A stretch of 24,000 bases of DNA from Bacillus sp. DJP31 (lineage in GTDB: Bacteria; Bacillota; Bacilli; Bacillales; SA4): positions 118,070-142,069 of the forward strand of contig NZ_JBMERO010000010.1 of assembly GCF_049310945.1 (NCBI RefSeq), given 5' to 3'. Below are positions 1,745 to 24,000 of this stretch, piece after piece; positions within the stretch are counted from its first letter, which is position 1; every line of letters starts with the position of its first letter. Position numbers and translations under genes: made by a program. Under the pieces are notes generated by a model. It had not been told where the DNA came from. It ran no database searches and saw only the letters and a program-made list of their open reading frames with translations.

Positions 1745-2430
1745 GTGGAAATTGATTATGTCTTATTTCAAAAACTCATATTATCCTTAATACTTGGGGC
1801 TGCTGTGGGGTTAGAACGCGAATTGAAGAAGAAGCCTCTTGGGCTAAAGACGACCATTATTATCTCCGTGAGCTCATGCCTGCTAACAATTGTATCCATT
1901 CATGCTTCAGATTTATATGCTGTAGCTTATGAGAAACCGATGGATCTCTAAGACTTGCAGCTCAAATCATTTCAGGAGTCGGGTTTCTAGGTGCAGGTGC
2001 CATCCTAAGCCGAAATAATGATGTAATAAGTGGCTTAACCACAGCCGCCATGATTTGGGCAGCTGCTGGTTTAGGCATTACGGTAGGAGCAGGATTTTAC
2101 ATAGAAGCCATTAGTGCCATGCTACTCATGCTTATTGCAGTTGAAGGACTAAGCCCACTTCTAAAAAAAATCGGGCCTAAGACCTTACGTCAAAAAGAAA
2201 TTCGAGTGAAAATTGAAGTAATGAAGGAAATATCATTAAAGGAAACGTTCCAACATATTAGGGATCTGAAGATGACCATACAACGGGTCCGATTTAAGGA
2301 TGATCAAGAGAAGAACTACTGCCTTATTGATTTAGTCGTGACCATTCATCAAAATCGTTACACGTCAGATGTTTATGAAGACCTAAAAAATTTACAAGAA
2401 GTACATTCAATTGAGATCGAGCTGTTATAG
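1745..2430 (+). pseudogene. MgtC/SapB family membrane protein, split by a -1 frameshift near 1946
   Basis: GTG start at 1745 follows AAGGGGGA. Part 1 (1745..1951) ends ...EKPMDL*. In the other frame it continues directly as LRLAAQIISGVGFLGAGAILS...MIWAAAGLGITVGAGFY, the MgtC core. Restoring one base in GAT-C(C)T-CTA-AGA gives the family-typical MDPLRLAAQ. Confidence 0.8.
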
Positions 2431-4902: not shown

Positions 4903-5223
4903 ATGAGTAAAGAAATAAAGAGTTTCGTAGAATTTAAGAATTATATTGATTCATCTAAAGCTGTTGTAATCAAATTTTATGCAGATTGGTGCCCGGATTG
5001 CAAGAGGATGGATAACTTTATGGAAGAAGTTTTAGAAGGATTTGATTCTATTCCAATGTATAATTTAAATAAAGATCAGTTTGAACAGATTTCTTCTGAA
5101 AACGATGTGATGGGTATACCAAGCTTACTTGTTTTTAAAGAAGGTAAGAAAATAGGGCATCTACACAGTGCTAATGCAAAAACGCCTGACCCAGTAACCG
5201 AATTTTTATCTACGTTTTTTTAG
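4903..5223 (+). CDS. Thioredoxin-family protein (WCPDC active site)
   Basis: KFYADWCPDCKRM active-site context, cis-Pro region GIPSLLVF, 106 aa. RBS GGAAAGGA lies upstream of ATG 4903. Confidence 0.85.
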   Translation: MSKEIKSFVEFKNYIDSSKAVVIKFYADWCPDCKRMDNFMEEVLEGFDSIPMYNLNKDQFEQISSENDVMGIPSLLVFKEGKKIGHLHSANAKTPDPVTEFLSTFF

Positions 5224-5243
5224 TTGGGAAAGGTCACATACTA

Positions 5244-6368
5244 TTGTATGTGGCTTTCTTATTAGTAAATGAGGTGTATACAATAAAAACTGTAATATTA
5301 ATTGGAGCAGGCCATGCTCATTTATATTGTCTGAAAATGGTAGAAAAGGCAAACCTAAATGATATAAAATTTATACTCATATCCCCCTCTCCATACCAAT
5401 ATTATTCAGGAATGTTTTCAGGTTACACAGAGGGAATTTATTCAATTGATGACATTAGGATAGATGTAAGACAACTTTCTAAACATTCCTCATTTGAATT
5501 TGTAGAGGACCATGTTATTAAAGTATCTCCAGTAAGCAAATATGTTGAATGTTCAAAAGGACACAACATTCAGTTTGATGTTATCTCATTTGATATTGGT
5601 TCAATTGGCGAAAAACCATCAAGCTTCTCTAAAGAGATTTTTCCAATTAAGCCAACCTACATGTTTTCAGATAGTGTAAATCTGCTAAGAGAAAAAGAGA
5701 ATCCAATTATAGTCGGTGGGGGAGCATCAGGATTTGAATTGGCACTTGCCATTAAAGCATTTCAATTAACGCAACGAAAATTGAATGCAACCGTTACATT
5801 AGTGTCTTCAAAGCAATTATTGAGCGGCTATAATGACAAGATCTCAAAAACCACAAAGGAGATTGCAATAAGAAAAGGTGTTATCATCCATGAGAATGAA
5901 CCTGTAATTGATGTATTTGACAGTAAAATTATTACTAAATCCGGATTAACATTATCATATGACGGCCTTCTATGGCTCACTGGACCTAAAGCACCATTGC
6001 TTTTTAAACATTCTAATTTAACGGTTAATGAAACAGGGTACTTAGTTACAAATAGATTTCTACAAAGCGTACAATACCCATATATTTTTGGTGCAGGTGA
6101 TTGTGTATCTTTAGTAGAATATCCCACCCTCCCTAAAAATGGAGTGAACGCTATTAGACAAAGTCCTATTTTGTGGAGAAATATTTTAAGCTATTTGAAG
6201 GAAATGCTTCTAGTACCTTTCCAACCACAAAAAAATTACTTATCCATCCTTTCGACTGGACAAAAACAAGGTCTTTTACTATATAATAACTTTTATTTTC
6301 ATCATAAAAGCGCTTGGTTACTTAAAAATAGAATTGATCGCCGCTTTATTCGAAAATATAAAAAGTAA
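5244..6368 (+). CDS. FAD-dependent pyridine-nucleotide-disulfide-type oxidoreductase, resembles the 'N-terminal-to-SelD' family (TIGR03169, from memory)
   Basis: Rossmann start VILIGAGHAHL, then LISPSPYQYYSGMFSGYTEG, a second GGGASGFELA, GAGDC, LPKNGVNAIRQSPILWRNI and a C-terminal KNRIDRRFIRKY. The start is uncertain: TTG 5244, or in-frame GTG 5250/5274. The Rossmann fold would normally begin within about 10 aa of the start. Confidence 0.75.
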   Translation: MYVAFLLVNEVYTIKTVILIGAGHAHLYCLKMVEKANLNDIKFILISPSPYQYYSGMFSGYTEGIYSIDDIRIDVRQLSKHSSFEFVEDHVIKVSPVSKYVECSKGHNIQFDVISFDIGSIGEKPSSFSKEIFPIKPTYMFSDSVNLLREKENPIIVGGGASGFELALAIKAFQLTQRKLNATVTLVSSKQLLSGYNDKISKTTKEIAIRKGVIIHENEPVIDVFDSKIITKSGLTLSYDGLLWLTGPKAPLLFKHSNLTVNETGYLVTNRFLQSVQYPYIFGAGDCVSLVEYPTLPKNGVNAIRQSPILWRNILSYLKEMLLVPFQPQKNYLSILSTGQKQGLLLYNNFYFHHKSAWLLKNRIDRRFIRKYKK

Positions 6369-6469
6369 GGTTTTTTTACATAAGCCATCACTCCTACTTA
6401 AGTGCCACTTAAAGCTTTGAAACGATTATTTAATTAGTATATGTTTATCTATCAAATATGAGGTGCTTC

Positions 6470-7564
6470 ATGTCTATCTTTAGTATCGTCTTTTTCGGAG
6501 TATGTCTGTTTACTGCAACAAAGATTGTCAATCAATTAAACTTACAACACTTTTTTATTTCCATACCTTATACTGCAACATTCTTGTTAATACCAATTTC
6601 TTATATCTTGTATCACTTCTTTAATTTTGAACTTACATTACCATTTTTTCTAGAACGTCTTGCTGTAACAATCTTTTTATTTTCAATTGGATTCCAAATT
6701 GCAACTATTATTAACAAAAAATACTTCATAAGAGTTTTCGTTTTATCCATTATTAGTATTTTAATTATCGTGGTTCTAAATCTTATATCATTACCTTTTC
6801 CAGAGGATCTTCAAATTTTAGTTGGTTCTGCAATGTTTGCGTATAGTCCCTTTATAATGGAATATGTCACTTCGAACATATATACAGATTTCCTGATGTA
6901 CTGGAGCTCCATACAAATGGTTATCGTGTTCATAAGCACACCCATTTTCCTATTCGTTTCAAATAGAGTTCTAAAGAATAAAGACAATAAGAACCTTCAA
7001 CAAGAGTATTTACCTCTTACTTTGACAAGGCTACATTTTTTTGTAATAACAGTTTCGTTCCTATTTGTCTTTTTAACCATGAGACTTCATTCTTTAAACG
7101 TTTTATTTTTACATGATTTTGTATTTGGACTTCTTGCAGGATTTTTCTTAGGATACATCCTTAAACGTAGATCCTTACAAACTGAAAAAGCCACTAAACT
7201 TCATCAGTTAGGTAGCCTTGGGCTTTATCTATTTATTATGTCATCTATTAACCATTTTGCTTTTGTAAACCATGAACTATTTAACTGGTCTATTTTATTT
7301 CTAATGGTAATGAAAACAATACTGGTTGGGTTTTTAAGCTTATTCGTAATGATCTATTTCTTTAAATCCCTATCACTCCAAGAAAAGCTTGTCGCCACTG
7401 TTGCAGGTTGGACATTCGTCTTAAGCTCCCCTGTTGTTTGCATGCATGGGATGAGGACCGTTGTTAATAAGCTTGGCCCCGCACCCTATGTATTATTAAT
7501 TATCCCACCTATTATTTTGTGGATAGTTAATTATTTTCATATATTGATAATTTATTTATTCTAA
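6470..7564 (+). CDS. Polytopic membrane protein, distant GltS (Na+/glutamate symporter, ESS family)-like
   Basis: About 10 hydrophobic segments. The C-terminal MRTVVNKLGPAPYVLLIIPPI...VNYF aligns by eye with E. coli GltS MQAITERFGPSHMAFLVVPMVGAFFIDIVN. ATG 6470 follows GAGGTG (6460-6465) and is preferred over ATG 6458. Confidence 0.55.
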   Translation: MSIFSIVFFGVCLFTATKIVNQLNLQHFFISIPYTATFLLIPISYILYHFFNFELTLPFFLERLAVTIFLFSIGFQIATIINKKYFIRVFVLSIISILIIVVLNLISLPFPEDLQILVGSAMFAYSPFIMEYVTSNIYTDFLMYWSSIQMVIVFISTPIFLFVSNRVLKNKDNKNLQQEYLPLTLTRLHFFVITVSFLFVFLTMRLHSLNVLFLHDFVFGLLAGFFLGYILKRRSLQTEKATKLHQLGSLGLYLFIMSSINHFAFVNHELFNWSILFLMVMKTILVGFLSLFVMIYFFKSLSLQEKLVATVAGWTFVLSSPVVCMHGMRTVVNKLGPAPYVLLIIPPIILWIVNYFHILIIYLF

Positions 7565-9452: not shown

Positions 9453-10877
9453 TTATCGAAACCATTGGATATATTTTTTAATGAGTTTAGGTATCCACCC
9501 TGTAAACAGAGCTTCTCGCCAATATACATCTGCCGTTCGTTGTACAGCTGCAGCATGATTTGGATAGGGGTGAATGACTTGAGAAATATCTCCTAGTTTT
9601 CTTTTATATTGCTTTGCAAAGACCACTTCTTGCATCCAATCTCCAGCACCTTTTCCGATTGCATGTGCGCCAATAATATATCCCTTTTTATCAGTTAAGA
9701 TTTTTACTAAACCGTTTGTCTCATGATCAGTAACAAAACGATCTACATCGTCTAAATTAATTTTATATACGTTATTCTCTATGTTTTTTGCGTTTGCTTC
9801 TTCTTCTGTTAACCCTAAATGAAAAATTTCTGGAGACAAATACGTATTCCATGGGACCGTTTCATAGCTTACTTTTCTTCTTAAACCTAATACAGCATTT
9901 TGTACAATAAGCTTCCCTTCCATTCCAGCAACATGAGTAAAGGGCATTTTTCCTACTACATCCCCAATTGCGTAAATAGAAGGAATATTTGTTTGCAAAG
10001 AATCATTTACGATAATATGCCCTTTTTCACTTGTTTTCACATTCACATTCTGTAATGCTAAAGAATCCGTATTTGGCACCCTGCCAACTGCAACTAGTAT
10101 TTCATCTACAGGGATTTCAAGTATCTTTTCATCTCTTTTTATTTTTACTATCTTTTGATTATTTTCGATTTCAACCTCCAAAGCGGAGGCATTTGTATAG
10201 ATCGTTATTTCCTTAGATAGTATATCAGTTGCCAAATTCCTGATTTCATGATCTTCACGTAGTAAAATATCCGGTGAACGTTCTACTACTGTTACATTAC
10301 TTCCTAGCCTTGACATCGCTTGGGCCATTTCTAGACCAACAGGACCCCCACCAACCACAAGTAAGCTTTCGGGTAAATGCTCTAGATCAAAAATGGTTTC
10401 ATTTGTGATAAAACCAGCTTCCTTTAAACCTTTAATAGGTGGAATAAAAGGTCTTGAACCTGTAGAAATGACGATTCGCTTTCCATATATCACTTCTTCT
10501 CCACTAATTTGAACTTCATGTTTTGATCGAAAGCTTCCTTTGCCTATAAAAACATCAATTCCTAATTTTTTAAATCGGTCAGCATCATCGTGCCTTTGAA
10601 TCGTTGAAATCGCATCTTTTGTTCTCTTTTTAACTTGCTTCATATCAATGGTACCTTCTAAGGTAAAACCAAGGTTCGCTATTTTTTTAGCATCATGTAC
10701 CATTCTAGCTGTTTCAATTAGAGCCTTTGATGGCACACATCCATAATGTAAGCAATCTCCACCAGGCTGCTTTTCTTTCTCTATCAGAGCAACTTTAGCA
10801 CCTAATGAAGCAGCACCAGCTGCAGCAGTTAGTCCTCCAGCTCCCCCACCTATTACAACTAGGTCATATTTTTTCAC
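9453..10877 (-). CDS. Class-I flavoprotein disulfide reductase (dihydrolipoyl dehydrogenase / mercuric reductase-like)
   Basis: N-terminal GGGAGG FAD fold, redox-active GGDCLHYGCVPSK (CxxxxC), a second Rossmann VVGGGPVGLE, GDV, and the C-terminal dimerisation motif HPYP. GTG start at 10877 follows AAGGGAGAGG. Confidence 0.9.
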   Translation of the reverse strand: MKKYDLVVIGGGAGGLTAAAGAASLGAKVALIEKEKQPGGDCLHYGCVPSKALIETARMVHDAKKIANLGFTLEGTIDMKQVKKRTKDAISTIQRHDDADRFKKLGIDVFIGKGSFRSKHEVQISGEEVIYGKRIVISTGSRPFIPPIKGLKEAGFITNETIFDLEHLPESLLVVGGGPVGLEMAQAMSRLGSNVTVVERSPDILLREDHEIRNLATDILSKEITIYTNASALEVEIENNQKIVKIKRDEKILEIPVDEILVAVGRVPNTDSLALQNVNVKTSEKGHIIVNDSLQTNIPSIYAIGDVVGKMPFTHVAGMEGKLIVQNAVLGLRRKVSYETVPWNTYLSPEIFHLGLTEEEANAKNIENNVYKINLDDVDRFVTDHETNGLVKILTDKKGYIIGAHAIGKGAGDWMQEVVFAKQYKRKLGDISQVIHPYPNHAAAVQRTADVYWREALFTGWIPKLIKKYIQWFR

Positions 10878-16180: not shown

Positions 16181-17294
16181 GTGAACATATATCCCAGAAA
16201 AAACTTCATACCTCAAGCACTCCCTCTCCCCTACCGGCAGACTCTACCGATTCCATTACAAAATATTGCTCAAAGTTGGAATACGAATTGGTCAAAAAGC
16301 ACGATCCCACTTACTGAATTGCAACCTGTAAAAAGAAGAGATGAGATACCATCAATAGATATTCCAACATTTGAAACGATTAATGAAGCAAAAAATTGGC
16401 TTCATCCACAAGAGCCCGTTATGGTAGTTGAGATAAATGGAGCTGCACGTGCTTATTCATTACAACTATTAATTTGGCATGAAATTGTTAATGATGTAAT
16501 TAACTCCGTACCAATTGCTGTTACGTATTGTCCTTTATGTAATTCTGCCTTTGTCTTTTCGAGATGGTTTAATAATGGTTTACTTGAGTTTGGAACAACA
16601 GGATTACTTAGAAATTCAAATTTAGTTATGTATGACAGAACTACAGAAAGCTTATGGCAACAATTTACTGGTGTTTCAATTGCTAGGAGAATTTGCTAGA
16701 TCTAGATTGTCATTCATTCCATCTAGTTTAGTTAGTTTTCAAACTTTTTCAACAACCTATCTAAGCGGTGTCGTGTTATCAAAAAAGACTGGCTACGTAA
16801 GAAATTATGGGCAAAATCCTTATTTAAATTATGACGTAATTGGGAGTGTTCCTTTTTTATATTTTGGTCCGATTGACCCTCGATTACCAGCAATGGAGCG
16901 TGTTGTTGGTATTTGGAATCAAGAATCAAGTATCACCTATCCATATTCGGCATTATCAAACAATAAAATCACCTATGGACAACTAGAAAATAGTGAGTTT
17001 GTTATATTTTTTAATGATAAAACAAAAACGGCTGTAGGTAGTAAAAACATTGCAGAATCAAGAAATGTAGGTTCAACAAATGTTTTCCTCCCTATTGCAA
17101 ACGCGAATCGCTTAACTTTTATATATGAAAATAATAAAATAGTAGATCTAGAAACAAGAAGTGAATGGAGTTTGTTAGGTATGGCATTAAGAGGACCCTT
17201 ACGCGGAGTTAAGCTACCAGTTGTTATTCATGGAGATCCTTTTTGGTTTTCCTGGGCTGCTTTCTATCCAAATAATGTGATTAAAAATAAATAA
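16181..17294 (+). pseudogene. DUF3179 domain protein, +1 frameshift near 16685
   Basis: Part 1 (16181..16699) has ARAYSLQLLIWHEIVNDVINSVPIAVTYCPLCNSA...LWQQFTGVSIARRIC*. Part 2 (16632..17294) continues as GEFARSRLSFIPSS... Removing the A in GCT-A-GGA-GAA joins them as TGVSIAGEFARSRL. GTG start at 16181 follows AAGGAGG. Confidence 0.8.
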
Positions 17295-19668: not shown

Positions 19669-20007
19669 TAAAACCCCTTCCTTTTAATAAAATTTAAAGA
19701 AAAAGCAATTACAAAGAAATTATTCCATTTGTTTTCAAATTATCTTATGAAAATCATTGTATTATTGGGAGAGGCTTTTGCCTATTTGAGTAATTAAGTA
19801 ATAATGTAAAAACAAAACCTACATAGAACATCCACTTTGTTATAGCTAATAAATTAATACATTCTTGAGCATTATTTATTGAGCCTATGGTATGAACGAA
19901 TGGTATAAAAAACTAACACCTTTATCTTAAAGTCCTATGATGAAGTATAAAAAGTAGAAGTATTAGTGCTCTAATCCCCTATAAATAAAAAGATAAGGAG
20001 GTAGATA

Positions 20008-20127
20008 ATATCAGGTTATGGATATGTAATAGGCTTTGCGTTAATCGTAGTGTTGTTTATCCTTTTAATTATTTTTGGTGCTGCTAGAGTAGGTCCGGCT
20101 ACTAACACTCATATTCATTTTAAATAG
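20008..20127 (+). pseudogene. YjcZ-like tiny transmembrane (sporulation) peptide, copy 1, with ATA where the start codon should be
   Basis: AAGGAGG (19995-20001) is followed 6 nt later by ATA TCA GGT TAT GGA TAT GTA ATA GGC TTT GCG TTA ATC GTA GTG TTG TTT ATC CTT TTA ATT ATT... This reads (I)SGYGYVIGFALIVVLFILLIIFGAA.... GFALIVVLFILLII is the YjcZ/tiny_TM_bacill core. No in-frame ATG, GTG or TTG follows the upstream TAG at 20002-20004. Confidence 0.5.
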
Positions 20128-20146
20128 TAGAGGGTGAGGTGATAAA

Positions 20147-20272
20147 TTGCGATTGGGATTTGGTTATGGTGGCTATGGTTATGAAGGTGGATTCGCGTTA
20201 ATTGTCGTTTTATTTATCCTATTAATTATTATTGGTGCTCAGGTCTTGGTCATCATGGTTAATTTAGAGTAG
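20147..20272 (+). CDS. YjcZ-like tiny transmembrane (sporulation) peptide, copy 2 (41 aa)
   Basis: GGGTGAGGTG, then TTG 20147: MRLGFGYGGYGYEGGFALIVVLFILLIIIGAQVLVIMVNLE*. A Gly/Tyr-rich N-terminus plus the GGFALIVVLFILLII core. It is too short for the supplied ORF track. Confidence 0.65.
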   Translation: MRLGFGYGGYGYEGGFALIVVLFILLIIIGAQVLVIMVNLE

Positions 20273-20397
20273 AATGGGCACTTAAAATCCATAATTATCC
20301 TCTACAGATCAAAGTAAAAAGCCTATTATACGCATCACTTCAATATATTTTGCATCTATTTATTTCTTTCGTGCATATTTACTCTCTAAGCCCTTGA

Positions 20398-20691
20398 TTC
20401 GGTTTTGCGTTTGATTGGTTAAGTAGCCATTCAGAACATACAAATGCCGTCCGTGTCCAAATTTCAGTGTTGGCCTATAATTCCCATAATTGGTTAGGAA
20501 GAACCTGTTTGCCGGACAAAGTTCGAAATCAGACGATGGAAACGATACGCACCCAAATCATTAAGATTGCGGGAAGAGTGGTTCGTTCCGCTCGCTATAT
20601 GACATTCAAATTATGCAGTAGTTGCCTATACAAAGGTGCATTCTGGCAAACATTATTGGATATCCAACAACTCCAAGTCAGAATAAACTAG
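20398..20691 (+). mobile_element. IS1380-family transposase, C-terminal remnant only (about 97 codons)
   Basis: The frame is open from 20398: FGFAFDWLSSHSEHTNAVRVQISVLAYNSHNWLGRTCLPDKVRNQTMETIRTQIIKIAGRVVRSARYMTFKLCSSC.... It matches the conserved IS1380/DDE C-terminus (SSHSF-AN-..LQI..LAYNL.NW....P......I.T.R..L.KIA.KVV.SARY..FKL.SS). There is no N-terminal or catalytic region upstream. Confidence 0.7.
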
Positions 20692-20754
20692 ATCGTTTAC
20701 TAGAGGGCACTTAAAATCTAGTTACTCAAAAAAACGAACTATTCTAGGGAGTCT

Positions 20755-20948
20755 ATGTTGATTGGTGCGGAAGGTGCGAGACTCCTTGCTAAGAGCAGAG
20801 GGACAGGTGAGACCTAGGCTTTTTCACGATAGTGAAAATAGCCCTCCATTCCCTGCGACGAGGTAGGTTTTTTCACGGTAGTGAAAATAACCTTCCTTTT
20901 TCGTCCGCCCCGCGGAAAGCGAAGCATCCTTGAGTGGAAATCAACAGG
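20755..20948 (+). repeat. Structured intergenic repeat element (Bacillus-type 'MLIGAEGARLL' pseudo-ORF repeat) with duplicated internal hairpin
   Basis: It starts ATGTTGATTGGTGCGGAAGGTGCGAGACTCC and ends CGCGGAAAGCGAAGCATCCTTGAGTGGAAATCAACAG. I recognise these termini from repeats scattered in several Bacillaceae genomes. Two internal hairpins are present: GGCTTTTTCAC-GATA-GTGAAAATAGCC (20817-20843) and AGGTTTTTTCAC-GGTA-GTGAAAATAACCT (20865-20893), 48 bp apart. Confidence 0.55.
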
Positions 20949-21119
20949 TAAATTTAACACTTACTACTTAAAATGTGGATTTTTTCAGTGGCTCGTTTAC
21001 TAGTAACCTATTTTTTTAAAAAATAGGTTCAACCAAGGGAGAAGTATGCCCATCTTTGATTAATGAGGTTATCTGATAAGAAATTCATATCCATTTAATG
21101 AAGGTGAAGTGTAAATCAA

Positions 21120-21171
21120 AAAGAAAACCCCACAAAATGTAAGTGGATTTTACTATCCCAGCATTTTGTGG
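21120..21171 (-). terminator. Hairpin plus T-tract (minus strand), distal terminator candidate for the AhpD-like gene
   Basis: CCACAAAATG (21130-21139) pairs with CATTTTGTGG (21162-21171), a perfect 10 bp stem with a 22-nt loop. On the minus strand it is followed by GGTTTTCTTTTTG. Confidence 0.4.
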
Positions 21172-21315
21172 AGTAATTTTAAGGGAAATGGCTGTTCCGT
21201 GAATAATTTGGGTGTATATGACTAGAACGTTGATTTTTATCCTATTAACACATTTTCCCCTTTTATTACATGATCAATAAGAACACCATTCTATCCTAGG
21301 AATGCTTATTTAAAC

Positions 21316-21355
21316 AAAAAAGAACATTATTCACTCTAAATAGTAAATAATGTCC
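21316..21355 (-). terminator. AT-rich hairpin plus T6, proximal terminator candidate for the AhpD-like gene
   Basis: On the minus strand ACATTATT (21353-21346) pairs with AATAATGT (21331-24), followed by TC-TTTTTT (A-run 21316-21321 on plus). It lies about 10 nt after the stop at 21364. Confidence 0.4.
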
Positions 21356-21363
21356 ATATTATT

Positions 21364-21900
21364 TTAATGATATTCTTCCTCTAGCTTCACTCCTAGACCT
21401 TCTGCCATCCTGTTAACAAAATTAAAGTAAGAAGTGATTTGACAAATATCTAATATCTCTGTATCTGTACAGCCAAGTTTTCTTAATTTCTCTACATCTT
21501 CATCTGTGACACTATGAGGCTTCTTAGTTAGCTTAACTGCATAATCCAAAATAGCTATAGTTTTGTCATCTAGCTGAACTTGTCGATAATCTTTTTTAAG
21601 GTCTTGAACAAGTTGGTTGTCTTTCGTTAATAAATGGAGCGCCGCCCCATGATGTTCCATTCAGTAAAAGCATTCATTAGTAGATGAAACAACAGTAGCA
21701 ATTGTTTCCCTCATTTTCCTACTTAACGGAGACTTTCCAAACATAATAACCTTATAATAATCCAAATGGGCTTCTAATGATTTTGCATTCAGTGAATGAA
21801 CTTTTAATATATTTGCCATCTTTCCATTAAACTTATCATACAATTCTTTTAGTTTACCTTCAGCCTCTTCGGCCTCTATCATATGAATTCTAGCTTCCAT
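21364..21900 (-). CDS. AhpD/carboxymuconolactone-decarboxylase-family 'peroxidase-related' protein with in-frame TGA at 21661-21663 (candidate selenocysteine; otherwise a nonsense pseudogene)
   Basis: The two ORF-track entries (21661..21900 and 21364..21660) share one frame and are separated only by TGA: ...VVSSTNECFY-TGA-MEHHGAALH.... Cys homologues of this family read N-x-C-x-Y-C-x-x-HH. The joined length of 178 aa fits the family. A strong RBS (GGAGGAGG) precedes only ATG 21900, and none precedes ATG 21660. Confidence 0.75.
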
Positions 21901-21980
21901 ATAAATCTTCCTCCTCCCTATAATCTAACTAACGCTTTTAGAATTACATTCAGTTTATGAAATGACTTATACTAAAGTCA

Positions 21981-22017
21981 AGGATTATAATAGGATTTTA
22001 CATCCTATTATAATCTT
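21981..22017. promoter_or_regulatory. Perfect 14-bp inverted repeat GATTATAATAGGAT-n5-ATCCTATTATAATC
   Basis: Arms at 21983-21996 and 22002-22015, read directly. On the minus strand the repeat abuts a TTGACT hexamer, about 80-115 nt upstream of the AhpD-like start. On the plus strand it is followed by TCGCTTTTTGG. Confidence 0.4.
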
Positions 22018-23085: not shown

Positions 23086-24000
23086 TCAAACCTTTCTAGT
23101 TACATTCATTTTCAATTGGAGTTGTGACCGGTATTGTTTTACGTAGTTTTTAAAATTCCAAGTAGTTAAAAATTCCGTTTCGGATTCGGATTCTCTACCT
23201 AGTTCGATTAAATGAAGCTTTTGCTTTTTAGAAAGATGAAAGTCCGTAGCACCAACGTTAATTTTTCTATAAATACTGTTCTTGCAGCTAAATGTCTATC
23301 AATAATGTCTCTTATCATGAGCTTCAAACATTGATCTAATTAAAGGAATTGTTGTATTGACTGGACCTATTAGTTGAGTAGGTTGAAGAATTATACTTTG
23401 GCCAGATAACCGAAAGCCTATGGTTGGCCACTTCGGTATCTCTTCTAAATCAACTATCCAAATTGGATAGTTGATTAGTATTCCTCCATCTACAACCACC
23501 ACTTTAACTTTTAAATTACGAGGAATAAAGAAAAAAGGAATTGAACTACTAATCAGAACTGCGAAAGCAATTAGAAATAATTTAGGTTCGATACCATAGC
23601 GCGGGAGATCATCTGGAAGAATTGACATTCTATCTTGCGAAATATCTGCTATGATAATTTAAAGTTTGTTTTCTGGTAAGTCGCCAAAAGTTTGTATTGT
23701 CATCCTTTGCATTTAAAATGATTTAATACTCCTCTCTTTGAATGATAATCCTTTATGTTAAAAGTTTAATTTTTCAAGTAATTCATATGATACATATAGC
23801 AATATCTCCTTATAATGTAGGAAAGATTAAGCCTTTTAATCTTTACTACATTTTATTTTTCTTAAAAATTTTCGGTCAAAATAGCTGCTTCCAATTAGCT
23901 TTTCTAATTGCTCAGTCCGAAAATCCTCCAAGGGTCTATCTGCCAACTGATTTACATAAGCAAAATAACCAGTAATCTGATTAATATCTAATCCTAGATT
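23086..24000 (-). pseudogene. Patatin-like phospholipase, heavily decayed (in-frame TAA plus several frameshifts), runs off the window edge
   Basis: ORF 23299..23628 contains IPFFFIP...VVVDGGILINYPIW (patatin catalytic-Asp DGG motif). Upstream in the same frame: MTIQTFGDLPENKL-TAA(23659-23661)-IIIADISQDRM. Downstream pieces lie in two other frames: IIDRHLAARTVFIEK, then NVGATDFHLSKKQKLHLIELGRES...WNFKNYVKQY, with a stop at 23086-23088. Further stop-ridden fragments extend to 24000. Confidence 0.65.

Follow-up and report, generated by a model that had tools for sequence, protein, structure and literature searches.

An in-frame TGA in an AhpD-like gene is almost certainly the selenocysteine codon of a CxxU-type selenoprotein

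INTRODUCTION

Within a 24-kb stretch of DNA (24,000 nucleotides; hereafter, the window), a gene for an AhpD-like protein carries an in-frame TGA in its redox motif. Is this codon a lesion, the border between two genes, or a codon for selenocysteine (Sec)? The family has a history that bears on the question. AhpD-like proteins of COG2128 with a CxxU motif were described as a new selenoprotein family from the Sargasso Sea, with 27 sequences (Zhang, Fomenko & Gladyshev 2005, PMC1088965), and an AhpD-like selenoprotein was found in Alkaliphilus metalliredigens in 2006. In the GOS selenoproteome, "AhpD-like 1" ranks fourth in abundance at 299 sequences (PMC2398784). Supplementary file 4 of Peng et al. 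2016 (PMC5029168) gives AhpD-like counts of 16 and 17, which we read as 16 organisms and 17 selenoproteins, and a 2026 review has the entry "AhpD-like protein, TIGR01926, CxxU" (PMC13188914). An earlier interpretation of the locus, made from its sequence alone (the sequence-only reading), had noted that AhpD-like proteins occur in selenoproteome surveys. The literature makes the point more strongly, as this is an established and abundant family (PMC1088965, PMC2398784, PMC13188914).

We report that the in-frame TGA is almost certainly the Sec codon of an ordinary member of the AhpD-like (CxxU) selenoprotein family. Descent, present function and genomic context are treated separately below, since they are not equally firm.

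RESULTS

A single reading frame interrupted by one TGA

The gene comprises 179 codons in one frame on the minus strand (21900..21364), and its sole internal stop is TGA 21663-21661, in the context STNECFY-TGA-MEHHGAALHLL. The ORF list splits it into 21661..21900 (79 aa) and 21364..21660 (98 aa). The sequence-only reading had joined them into one frame uninterrupted except for the TGA, and had assigned a Shine-Dalgarno sequence to the upstream ATG only. Both statements were confirmed: GGAGGAGG lies 9 nt before ATG 21900, and no Shine-Dalgarno-like sequence was seen in the stretch upstream of ATG 21660. The features of the gene are as follows.

21364..21900, minus strand: AhpD-like coding sequence, 178 residues, single frame; matches TIGR01926, Pfam CMD and PDB relatives
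21900 and 21366-21364, minus strand: start codon ATG and stop codon TAA of the AhpD-like gene
21661..21663, minus strand: TGA, almost certainly the Sec codon (U80), second position of the C77-F-Y-U80 redox motif
21910..21917, minus strand: Shine-Dalgarno sequence GGAGGAGG, 9 nt 5′ of ATG 21900, read from the sequence
21952..21981, minus strand: promoter-like site, TTGACT-18-TAAACT, a consensus match only
21322..21355, minus strand: terminator-like hairpin followed by the T-run TTTTTTGTTT, 9 nt past the TAA stop
21634..21650, minus strand: putative SECIS hairpin of 17 nt, AUGGGGC-GGC-GCUCCAU, with a 7-bp stem (AUGGGGC/GCUCCAU) and the loop GGC at 21643-21641

With a promoter-like site upstream and a terminator-like hairpin past the stop codon, the locus has the appearance of an independent transcription unit. 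Promoter-like sites are weak evidence in this region, as 12 were found for 6.8 expected; terminator-like sites numbered four, with 0.3 expected in shuffled sequences. A near-perfect inverted repeat of 14-16 bp, GATTATAATAGGAT-N5-ATCCTATTATAATC, lies at 21983-22015 on both strands, adjoining the -35 element of the promoter-like site, and could serve as an operator or as a terminator for both directions.

The TGA occupies the second Cys position in an AhpD-type redox motif

With Cys placed at the TGA, the joined protein matched TIGR01926 ("peroxidase-related enzyme") at 149.7 bits for a cutoff of 81.8, residues 4-174 covering profile positions 2-176 of 178. The Pfam CMD domain was also recognized (39.7 versus a cutoff of 23), as was the AhpD core domain TIGR00778. 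Relatives of solved structure include the "peroxidase-related" proteins 2pfx, 3c1l, 2oyo and 2prr and the Deinococcus AhpD 6k40, aligned over residues ~15-178 with E values of 6e-32 to 3e-22, those of 2pfx and 3c1l being about 1e-32. In 2pfx and 3c1l, the TGA corresponds to the second Cys of the signature N-x-C-F/Y-Y-C-x-x-H-G-A-A (CFYC). That the TGA should sit on the second Cys of CxxC had been put forward as something to verify by alignment; it does so in the Cys-containing homologues as well as in these two structures.

The motif belongs to a larger catalytic set. The proton relay of AhpD consists of Glu36, Cys48, Tyr50, Cys51 and His55 in PA0269, and of Glu118, Cys130, His132, Cys133 and His137 in M. 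tuberculosis AhpD (PMC3141380). The window protein has E65, C77, Y79, U80 (the TGA) and H84, with the same spacing, E-12-C-x-Y-U-x3-H. Judging from this relay set, with Sec replacing the second catalytic Cys, the protein should work as a (seleno)thiol-disulfide oxidoreductase or a peroxidase-type antioxidant protein.

The TGA is widely conserved and both halves of the gene are constrained

We compared 80 homologous genome loci, reading the codon at the homologous position directly from the DNA. It is TGA in 52 loci and TGT or TGC in the other 28. All 21 Bacillales loci carry TGA (L001-L019, L022 and L026); they are mostly from Bacillaceae genera, and the genera represented are Bacillus, Virgibacillus, Alkalibacillus, Pseudalkalibacillus, Guptibacillus, Rossellomorea, Salipaludibacillus, Fictibacillus and Scopulibacillus. 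Further TGA loci come from Halanaerobiales, Gemmatimonadota, Acidobacteriota, Rubrobacteraceae, Polyangiales and Acanthopleuribacter, so that the TGA form spans at least five phyla. The Cys codons were found in Bacteroidota, Balneolales, Gammaproteobacteria, Thermotogae and one archaeon, and none of the 80 loci provides a close relative of the window gene with a Cys codon. One genome, that of Virgibacillus sp. DJP39, has two TGA-form paralogues on different contigs (L005 and L009).

In comparisons of the window gene with 20 Bacillales orthologues, synonymous divergence has reached saturation (pS 0.65-0.94), and dN amounts to 0.09-0.27 on either side of the TGA. These values point to strong purifying selection on both halves of the gene. 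The 20 closest Bacillales orthologues have 74 otherwise invariant residues, of which one is changed in the window protein; the orthologues themselves range from 0 to 6.

Because the TGA has been kept at one position through saturated divergence while both halves stayed constrained, it is not a nonsense lesion. The sequence-only reading had named a comparison with orthologues as a means of telling the two apart, and the result (TGA in 52/80 loci and in 21/21 from Bacillales) is the opposite of a strain-specific TGA. That the gene is Sec-encoding by descent can be taken as practically settled.

A covarying hairpin follows the TGA in Sec forms

Bacterial SECIS elements are stem-loops that directly follow the UGA and carry a G in their small apical loop (PMC1088965, PMC9312934). 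In the window, a hairpin at 21650-21634 begins 10 nt after the UGA and is the minimum-energy fold of the sequence. By itself it is unremarkable (MFE -8.2 kcal/mol, z = -0.86), and this single-sequence value was not used as evidence; the weight of the hairpin is comparative only. The comparison covered 53 Sec-form sequences (51 distinct), aligned without gaps, with 28 Cys forms for contrast.

The same hairpin is present in the minimum-energy fold of the 48 nt starting at the UGA in 53/53 TGA sequences, and is the dominant element in 49 of them. Its seven stem pairs are formed in 95.2% of cells of the Sec-form alignment, versus 37-56% with the 3′ arm shifted by one to three columns. Two pairs covary in the Sec forms: columns 15/29 are C-G in 27 sequences and U-A in 20, and columns 20/24 are C-G in 36 and A-U in 8. 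Neither the pairing nor the covariation score was attained in any shuffle. The covariation moreover crosses coding constraints: a synonymous change of CAU to CAC (His) is paired with CAU to CGU (His to Arg), and GCG to GAG (Ala to Glu) is compensated by the synonymous change of GCG to GCU. Column 21, a third codon position and the first base of the loop, is G in all 53 Sec forms versus 7 of the 28 Cys forms. Pairing over these stem columns is down to 39% in the Cys forms, with a mean MFE of -1.6 kcal/mol versus -8.9 kcal/mol in the Sec forms. The window hairpin is identical to the Bacillaceae consensus.

Since the hairpin shows the published features of bacterial SECIS elements and has comparative support, we take it to be the SECIS of the gene. 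Rfam gave no match, either at the gathering threshold over the whole window or at E ≤ 10 over 21500-21760.

A different structure had been suggested in the sequence-only reading, namely an 8-bp stem including the UGA itself, surmounted by a short upper stem. The proposed arms, UGAAUGGA (21663-21656) and UCCAUUUA (21638-21631), can indeed pair, but this is not the minimum-energy fold. Across the 53 TGA sequences, that structure is 75.2% paired versus 75.0% in shuffled alignments, its covariation score is 0.180 versus 0.178 in shuffles, and its 3′ arm overlaps the conserved hairpin at 21650-21634, competing for its bases. We thus rejected this structure.

Is the selenoprotein gene functional in its host?

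Sec insertion needs selA, selB, selC and selD. ARAGORN found no tRNA-Sec in the 24-kb window or in the 52 Sec-form loci, and tblastn with E. coli SelD and SelB, whose sequences were checked against PDB entries 3u0o and 5lzb, gave no hit for either gene in the window or across ~1.2 Mb flanking the loci (10 kb each). Nor was selA seen in the window or within 10 kb of any orthologue. A search with the C-terminal domain of Moorella SelB returned 40 matches, mostly metagenome fragments, none of them attributable to Bacillaceae. An orthologue host provides indirect support: Bacillus sp. SG-1, whose gene (L003) is 77% identical and carries the TGA, is SelD+/SelA+/SelB+ in Table S1 of Peng et al. 2016, and has a 9 in supplementary file 3 that we read as its selenoprotein count (PMC5029168 supplement). 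Many other Bacillales, among them several halophilic or alkaliphilic Bacillaceae, also have the Sec trait (same supplement).

Elsewhere in the window, at 4903-7564 on the plus strand, a thioredoxin (WCPDC), a TIGR03169-type oxidoreductase and a 368-aa membrane protein of unknown family lie in a row. The second of these matched TIGR03169, a pyridine-nucleotide disulfide oxidoreductase model of the "Nterm_to_SelD" type, at 277 bits, just below the cutoff of 310. Members of this family are often fused or adjacent to SelD in other genomes; selD was not found in the window.

The window also holds decayed genes.

16181-17294, plus strand: DUF3179 gene, Cys form with a TYCPLCNS motif, frameshifted near 16655-16700 and present as two overlapping ORFs
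20263-20688, plus strand: DDE_Tnp_1_4 transposase remnant, C-terminal 93 residues (~20400-20688)
23299-23628, minus strand: patatin fragment, last part of the domain
2050-2430, plus strand: MgtC C-terminal fragment

The AhpD-like gene is flanked by the transposase remnant and the patatin fragment, the frameshifted DUF3179 gene is ~4 kb away, and there is no long ORF at 19700-21300. Gene loss is therefore active in this region, and the caveat that the locus sits among pseudogenes, raised in the sequence-only reading, was fair with respect to the DUF3179 frameshift, the transposase remnant and the patatin fragment.

These observations bear on the possibility that the gene is a relic, i.e., that it was ancestrally Sec-encoding in a lineage that has lost its Sec machinery, so that translation now stops at the UGA and the gene is heading to decay. 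The neighboring DUF3179 frameshift, IS remnant and patatin fragment would fit such a history, as would the fact that tRNA-Sec, selD and selB were not found in the window or the 10-kb flanks of the loci. The gene itself, however, shows no decay: its 537 nt contain no second lesion, its hairpin has kept the Bacillaceae consensus, its single change among the 74 clade-invariant residues is in keeping with the orthologues, and its ribosome-binding site and terminator are intact. A relic is thus unlikely, and the gene very probably functions as a selenoprotein gene in this organism, with SelB- and SECIS-dependent insertion of Sec predicted at U80.

Split annotations and other readings of the UGA

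Protein searches returned three kinds of matches, one of which, two close full-length proteins with W at the TGA position, is taken up below. Full-length homologues are 42-56% identical to the joined protein, and dozens of proteins of 97-103 aa are 66-81% identical and all begin at the Met after the TGA. The latter include C-terminal halves called "peroxidase" in RefSeq from Cytobacillus suaedae, Bacillus shivajii, Guptibacillus algicola and Fictibacillus nanhaiensis; in the RefSeq orthologue entries P0040, P0042, P0071 and P0120, only the C-terminal half of 98-101 aa was called, under the same name.

Taken literally, such entries would describe two genes, a 79-aa peptide ending at the UGA and a 98-aa protein re-initiated at the abutting AUG (UGAAUG). 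The window has an ATG directly 3′ of the TGA, and annotation pipelines do name the 98-aa product. Yet the codon after the TGA is neither ATG nor GTG in 25 of the 52 TGA loci, being ATT, ATA, ATC, GTA, GTC, ACT or CTA; no Shine-Dalgarno sequence precedes 21660; and the split would divide both the helix bearing the catalytic CxxC/U-xxx-H and the TIGR01926 domain. We give stop and restart very little credence.

Alternatively, the UGA could specify a standard amino acid (Trp or Cys) by way of codon reassignment or near-cognate read-through. Two close full-length matches from JGI/Logan calls (P0001 and P0002) have W at the TGA position, NECFYWMEHH, as expected from a gene caller that reads TGA as Trp. 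TGA is a rare terminator here, ending one of the 20 family-supported ORFs of the window (TAA 13, TAG 6). Against a standard amino acid, the homologous residue is Cys and never Trp in the 28 loci without the TGA, and the window contains no other plausible TGA-interrupted gene or reading frame. Furthermore, the hairpin occurs only downstream of TGA, as SelB-dependent decoding predicts, and SelA and SelB are present in an orthologue host. Decoding as Trp or Cys is accordingly most improbable.

Finally, an ordinary pseudogene, created by a recent TGC/TGT-to-TGA substitution in a Cys-type gene as the sequence-only reading had allowed, would take one base change in a region with pseudogenes nearby, but is excluded for practical purposes by a TGA common to 52 of 80 loci across several phyla at saturated synonymous divergence, by close relatives without Cys and by the TGA-specific covarying hairpin.

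A recurrent flavoprotein neighbor

The window encodes an FAD-dependent pyridine-nucleotide disulfide oxidoreductase at 9453-10877 on the minus strand. Its counterparts lie no more than 10 kb from the AhpD-like gene in 25 of the 80 loci, and in 6 a flavoprotein reductase directly adjoins the gene. Loci with a flavoprotein near the AhpD-like gene include L018, L035, L042, L044, L056 and L058. The window flavoprotein has a GGDCLHYGC site; its best NCBIfam match is NF004991, followed by MerA- and lipoamide-dehydrogenase-type models, all below their cutoffs. It lacks a Sec-type C terminus, its gene stopping at TAA without an extension.

A Crp/Fnr regulator is linked to the AhpD-like gene in 15 of the 80 loci, and DUF3179 (PF11376, UxxC/T), itself a catalogued selenoprotein family, in 13. 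In these 13 loci, which belong to Gemmatimonadota, Acidobacteriota, Balneolales and Sphingobacteriales, intact DUF3179 genes lie no more than ~2.3 kb from the AhpD-like gene, most of them within ~1 kb. The segment 8735-16024 of the window, with a Crp/Fnr regulator, the flavoprotein, a CDP-alcohol phosphatidyltransferase, a DedA/VTT protein and a YnjB-like (PRK11622) ABC transporter, is syntenic with several Bacillaceae AhpD-like loci, the best being that of Bacillus timonensis (L002; 50-78% amino acid identity). The YnjB-like ABC transporter, DedA/VTT proteins and the CDP-alcohol phosphatidyltransferase also feature in the Bacillaceae AhpD-like neighborhoods.

The recurrent neighborhood suggests a dedicated redox relay from the flavoprotein to the AhpD-like protein, with the disulfide reductase encoded at 9453-10877 as the candidate electron donor. 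We tentatively propose, as a possibility that we rate well below even, that the AhpD-like selenoprotein might supply the terminal (seleno)thiol in a conserved module with a dedicated flavoprotein disulfide reductase under Crp/Fnr-type regulation, often accompanied by a DUF3179 CPLC/UxxC protein. If so, the module would be an NAD(P)H-driven system for the reduction of peroxides or of S/Se compounds that works without AhpC. As far as our limited searches show, such a module has not been described in the literature.

DISCUSSION

The proposal of a Sec-decoding CxxU gene split by ORF callers is upheld by the conservation of the TGA, by purifying selection on the gene and by a covarying hairpin found in TGA forms only. 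In the mechanism that we envisage, translation would begin at ATG 21900, and the hairpin AUGGGGC-GGC-GCUCCAU (21650-21634) would recruit SelB with Sec-tRNA(Sec) at UGA 21663-21661; selenocysteine would then be inserted, and translation would run on to TAA 21366-21364. We infer from the comparative data that Sec insertion takes place in this organism and, from the conserved relay, that the protein probably has enzymatic activity.

The window gene is an ordinary orthologue in an already known selenoprotein family, and only its annotation is wrong. Its biological weight is small, as AhpD-like CxxU proteins are among the most abundant catalogued prokaryotic selenoproteins. The value lies in the annotation: where databases have a 98-aa "peroxidase" fragment or calls with a spurious Trp, the true product is almost certainly a selenoprotein of 178 residues. 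Its presence makes the source organism a probable user of selenocysteine. In addition, the hairpin offers a clean, covariation-supported example of a SECIS, for which 53 sequences from several phyla were compared and 28 Cys forms serve as negative controls.

The SECIS of E. coli fdhF, in the work of Böck and Engelberg-Kulka, reportedly has a minimal upper stem-loop of 17 nt located ~11 nt after the UGA. The window hairpin is also 17 nt long, with a 10-nt spacer and G residues in its apical loop. It differs from the fdhF type in sequence, no bulged U is evident, and its SelB site is putative.

At the protein level, the window protein shares a CFYU-type motif and an AhpD-related domain with NF041238 (AhpD_rel_CFYUT, "alkylhydroperoxidase-related (seleno)protein"; Sargasso hypothetical protein 1). 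However, that model describes a 357-residue architecture, and the 178-residue window protein is not a member, scoring 52.4 bits for a cutoff of 175 and matching only the C-terminal half of the profile. With M. tuberculosis AhpD and P. aeruginosa PA0269, it has in common the CMD/AhpD core domain and the relay spacing. In contrast to both, it has Sec in place of the second Cys, its overall identity to them is low, no ahpC adjoins its gene, and it is not an AhpD of the TIGR00777 type. The motif aligns column for column with those of 2pfx, 3c1l (Mlr4105), 2oyo, 2prr and 6k40, all of which are Cys forms, whereas the window protein is predicted to be the Sec form.

The closest counterpart is the AhpD-like selenoprotein family itself (COG2128/TIGR01926). 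The window protein shares its family model and its CxxU motif with Sec at the second Cys, and the window likewise has a stem-loop with a G in a small apical loop after the UGA; Cys homologues of the family are widespread. Apart from a low-GC, Bacillaceae-like host, there is nothing of substance in which the window copy differs from this family.
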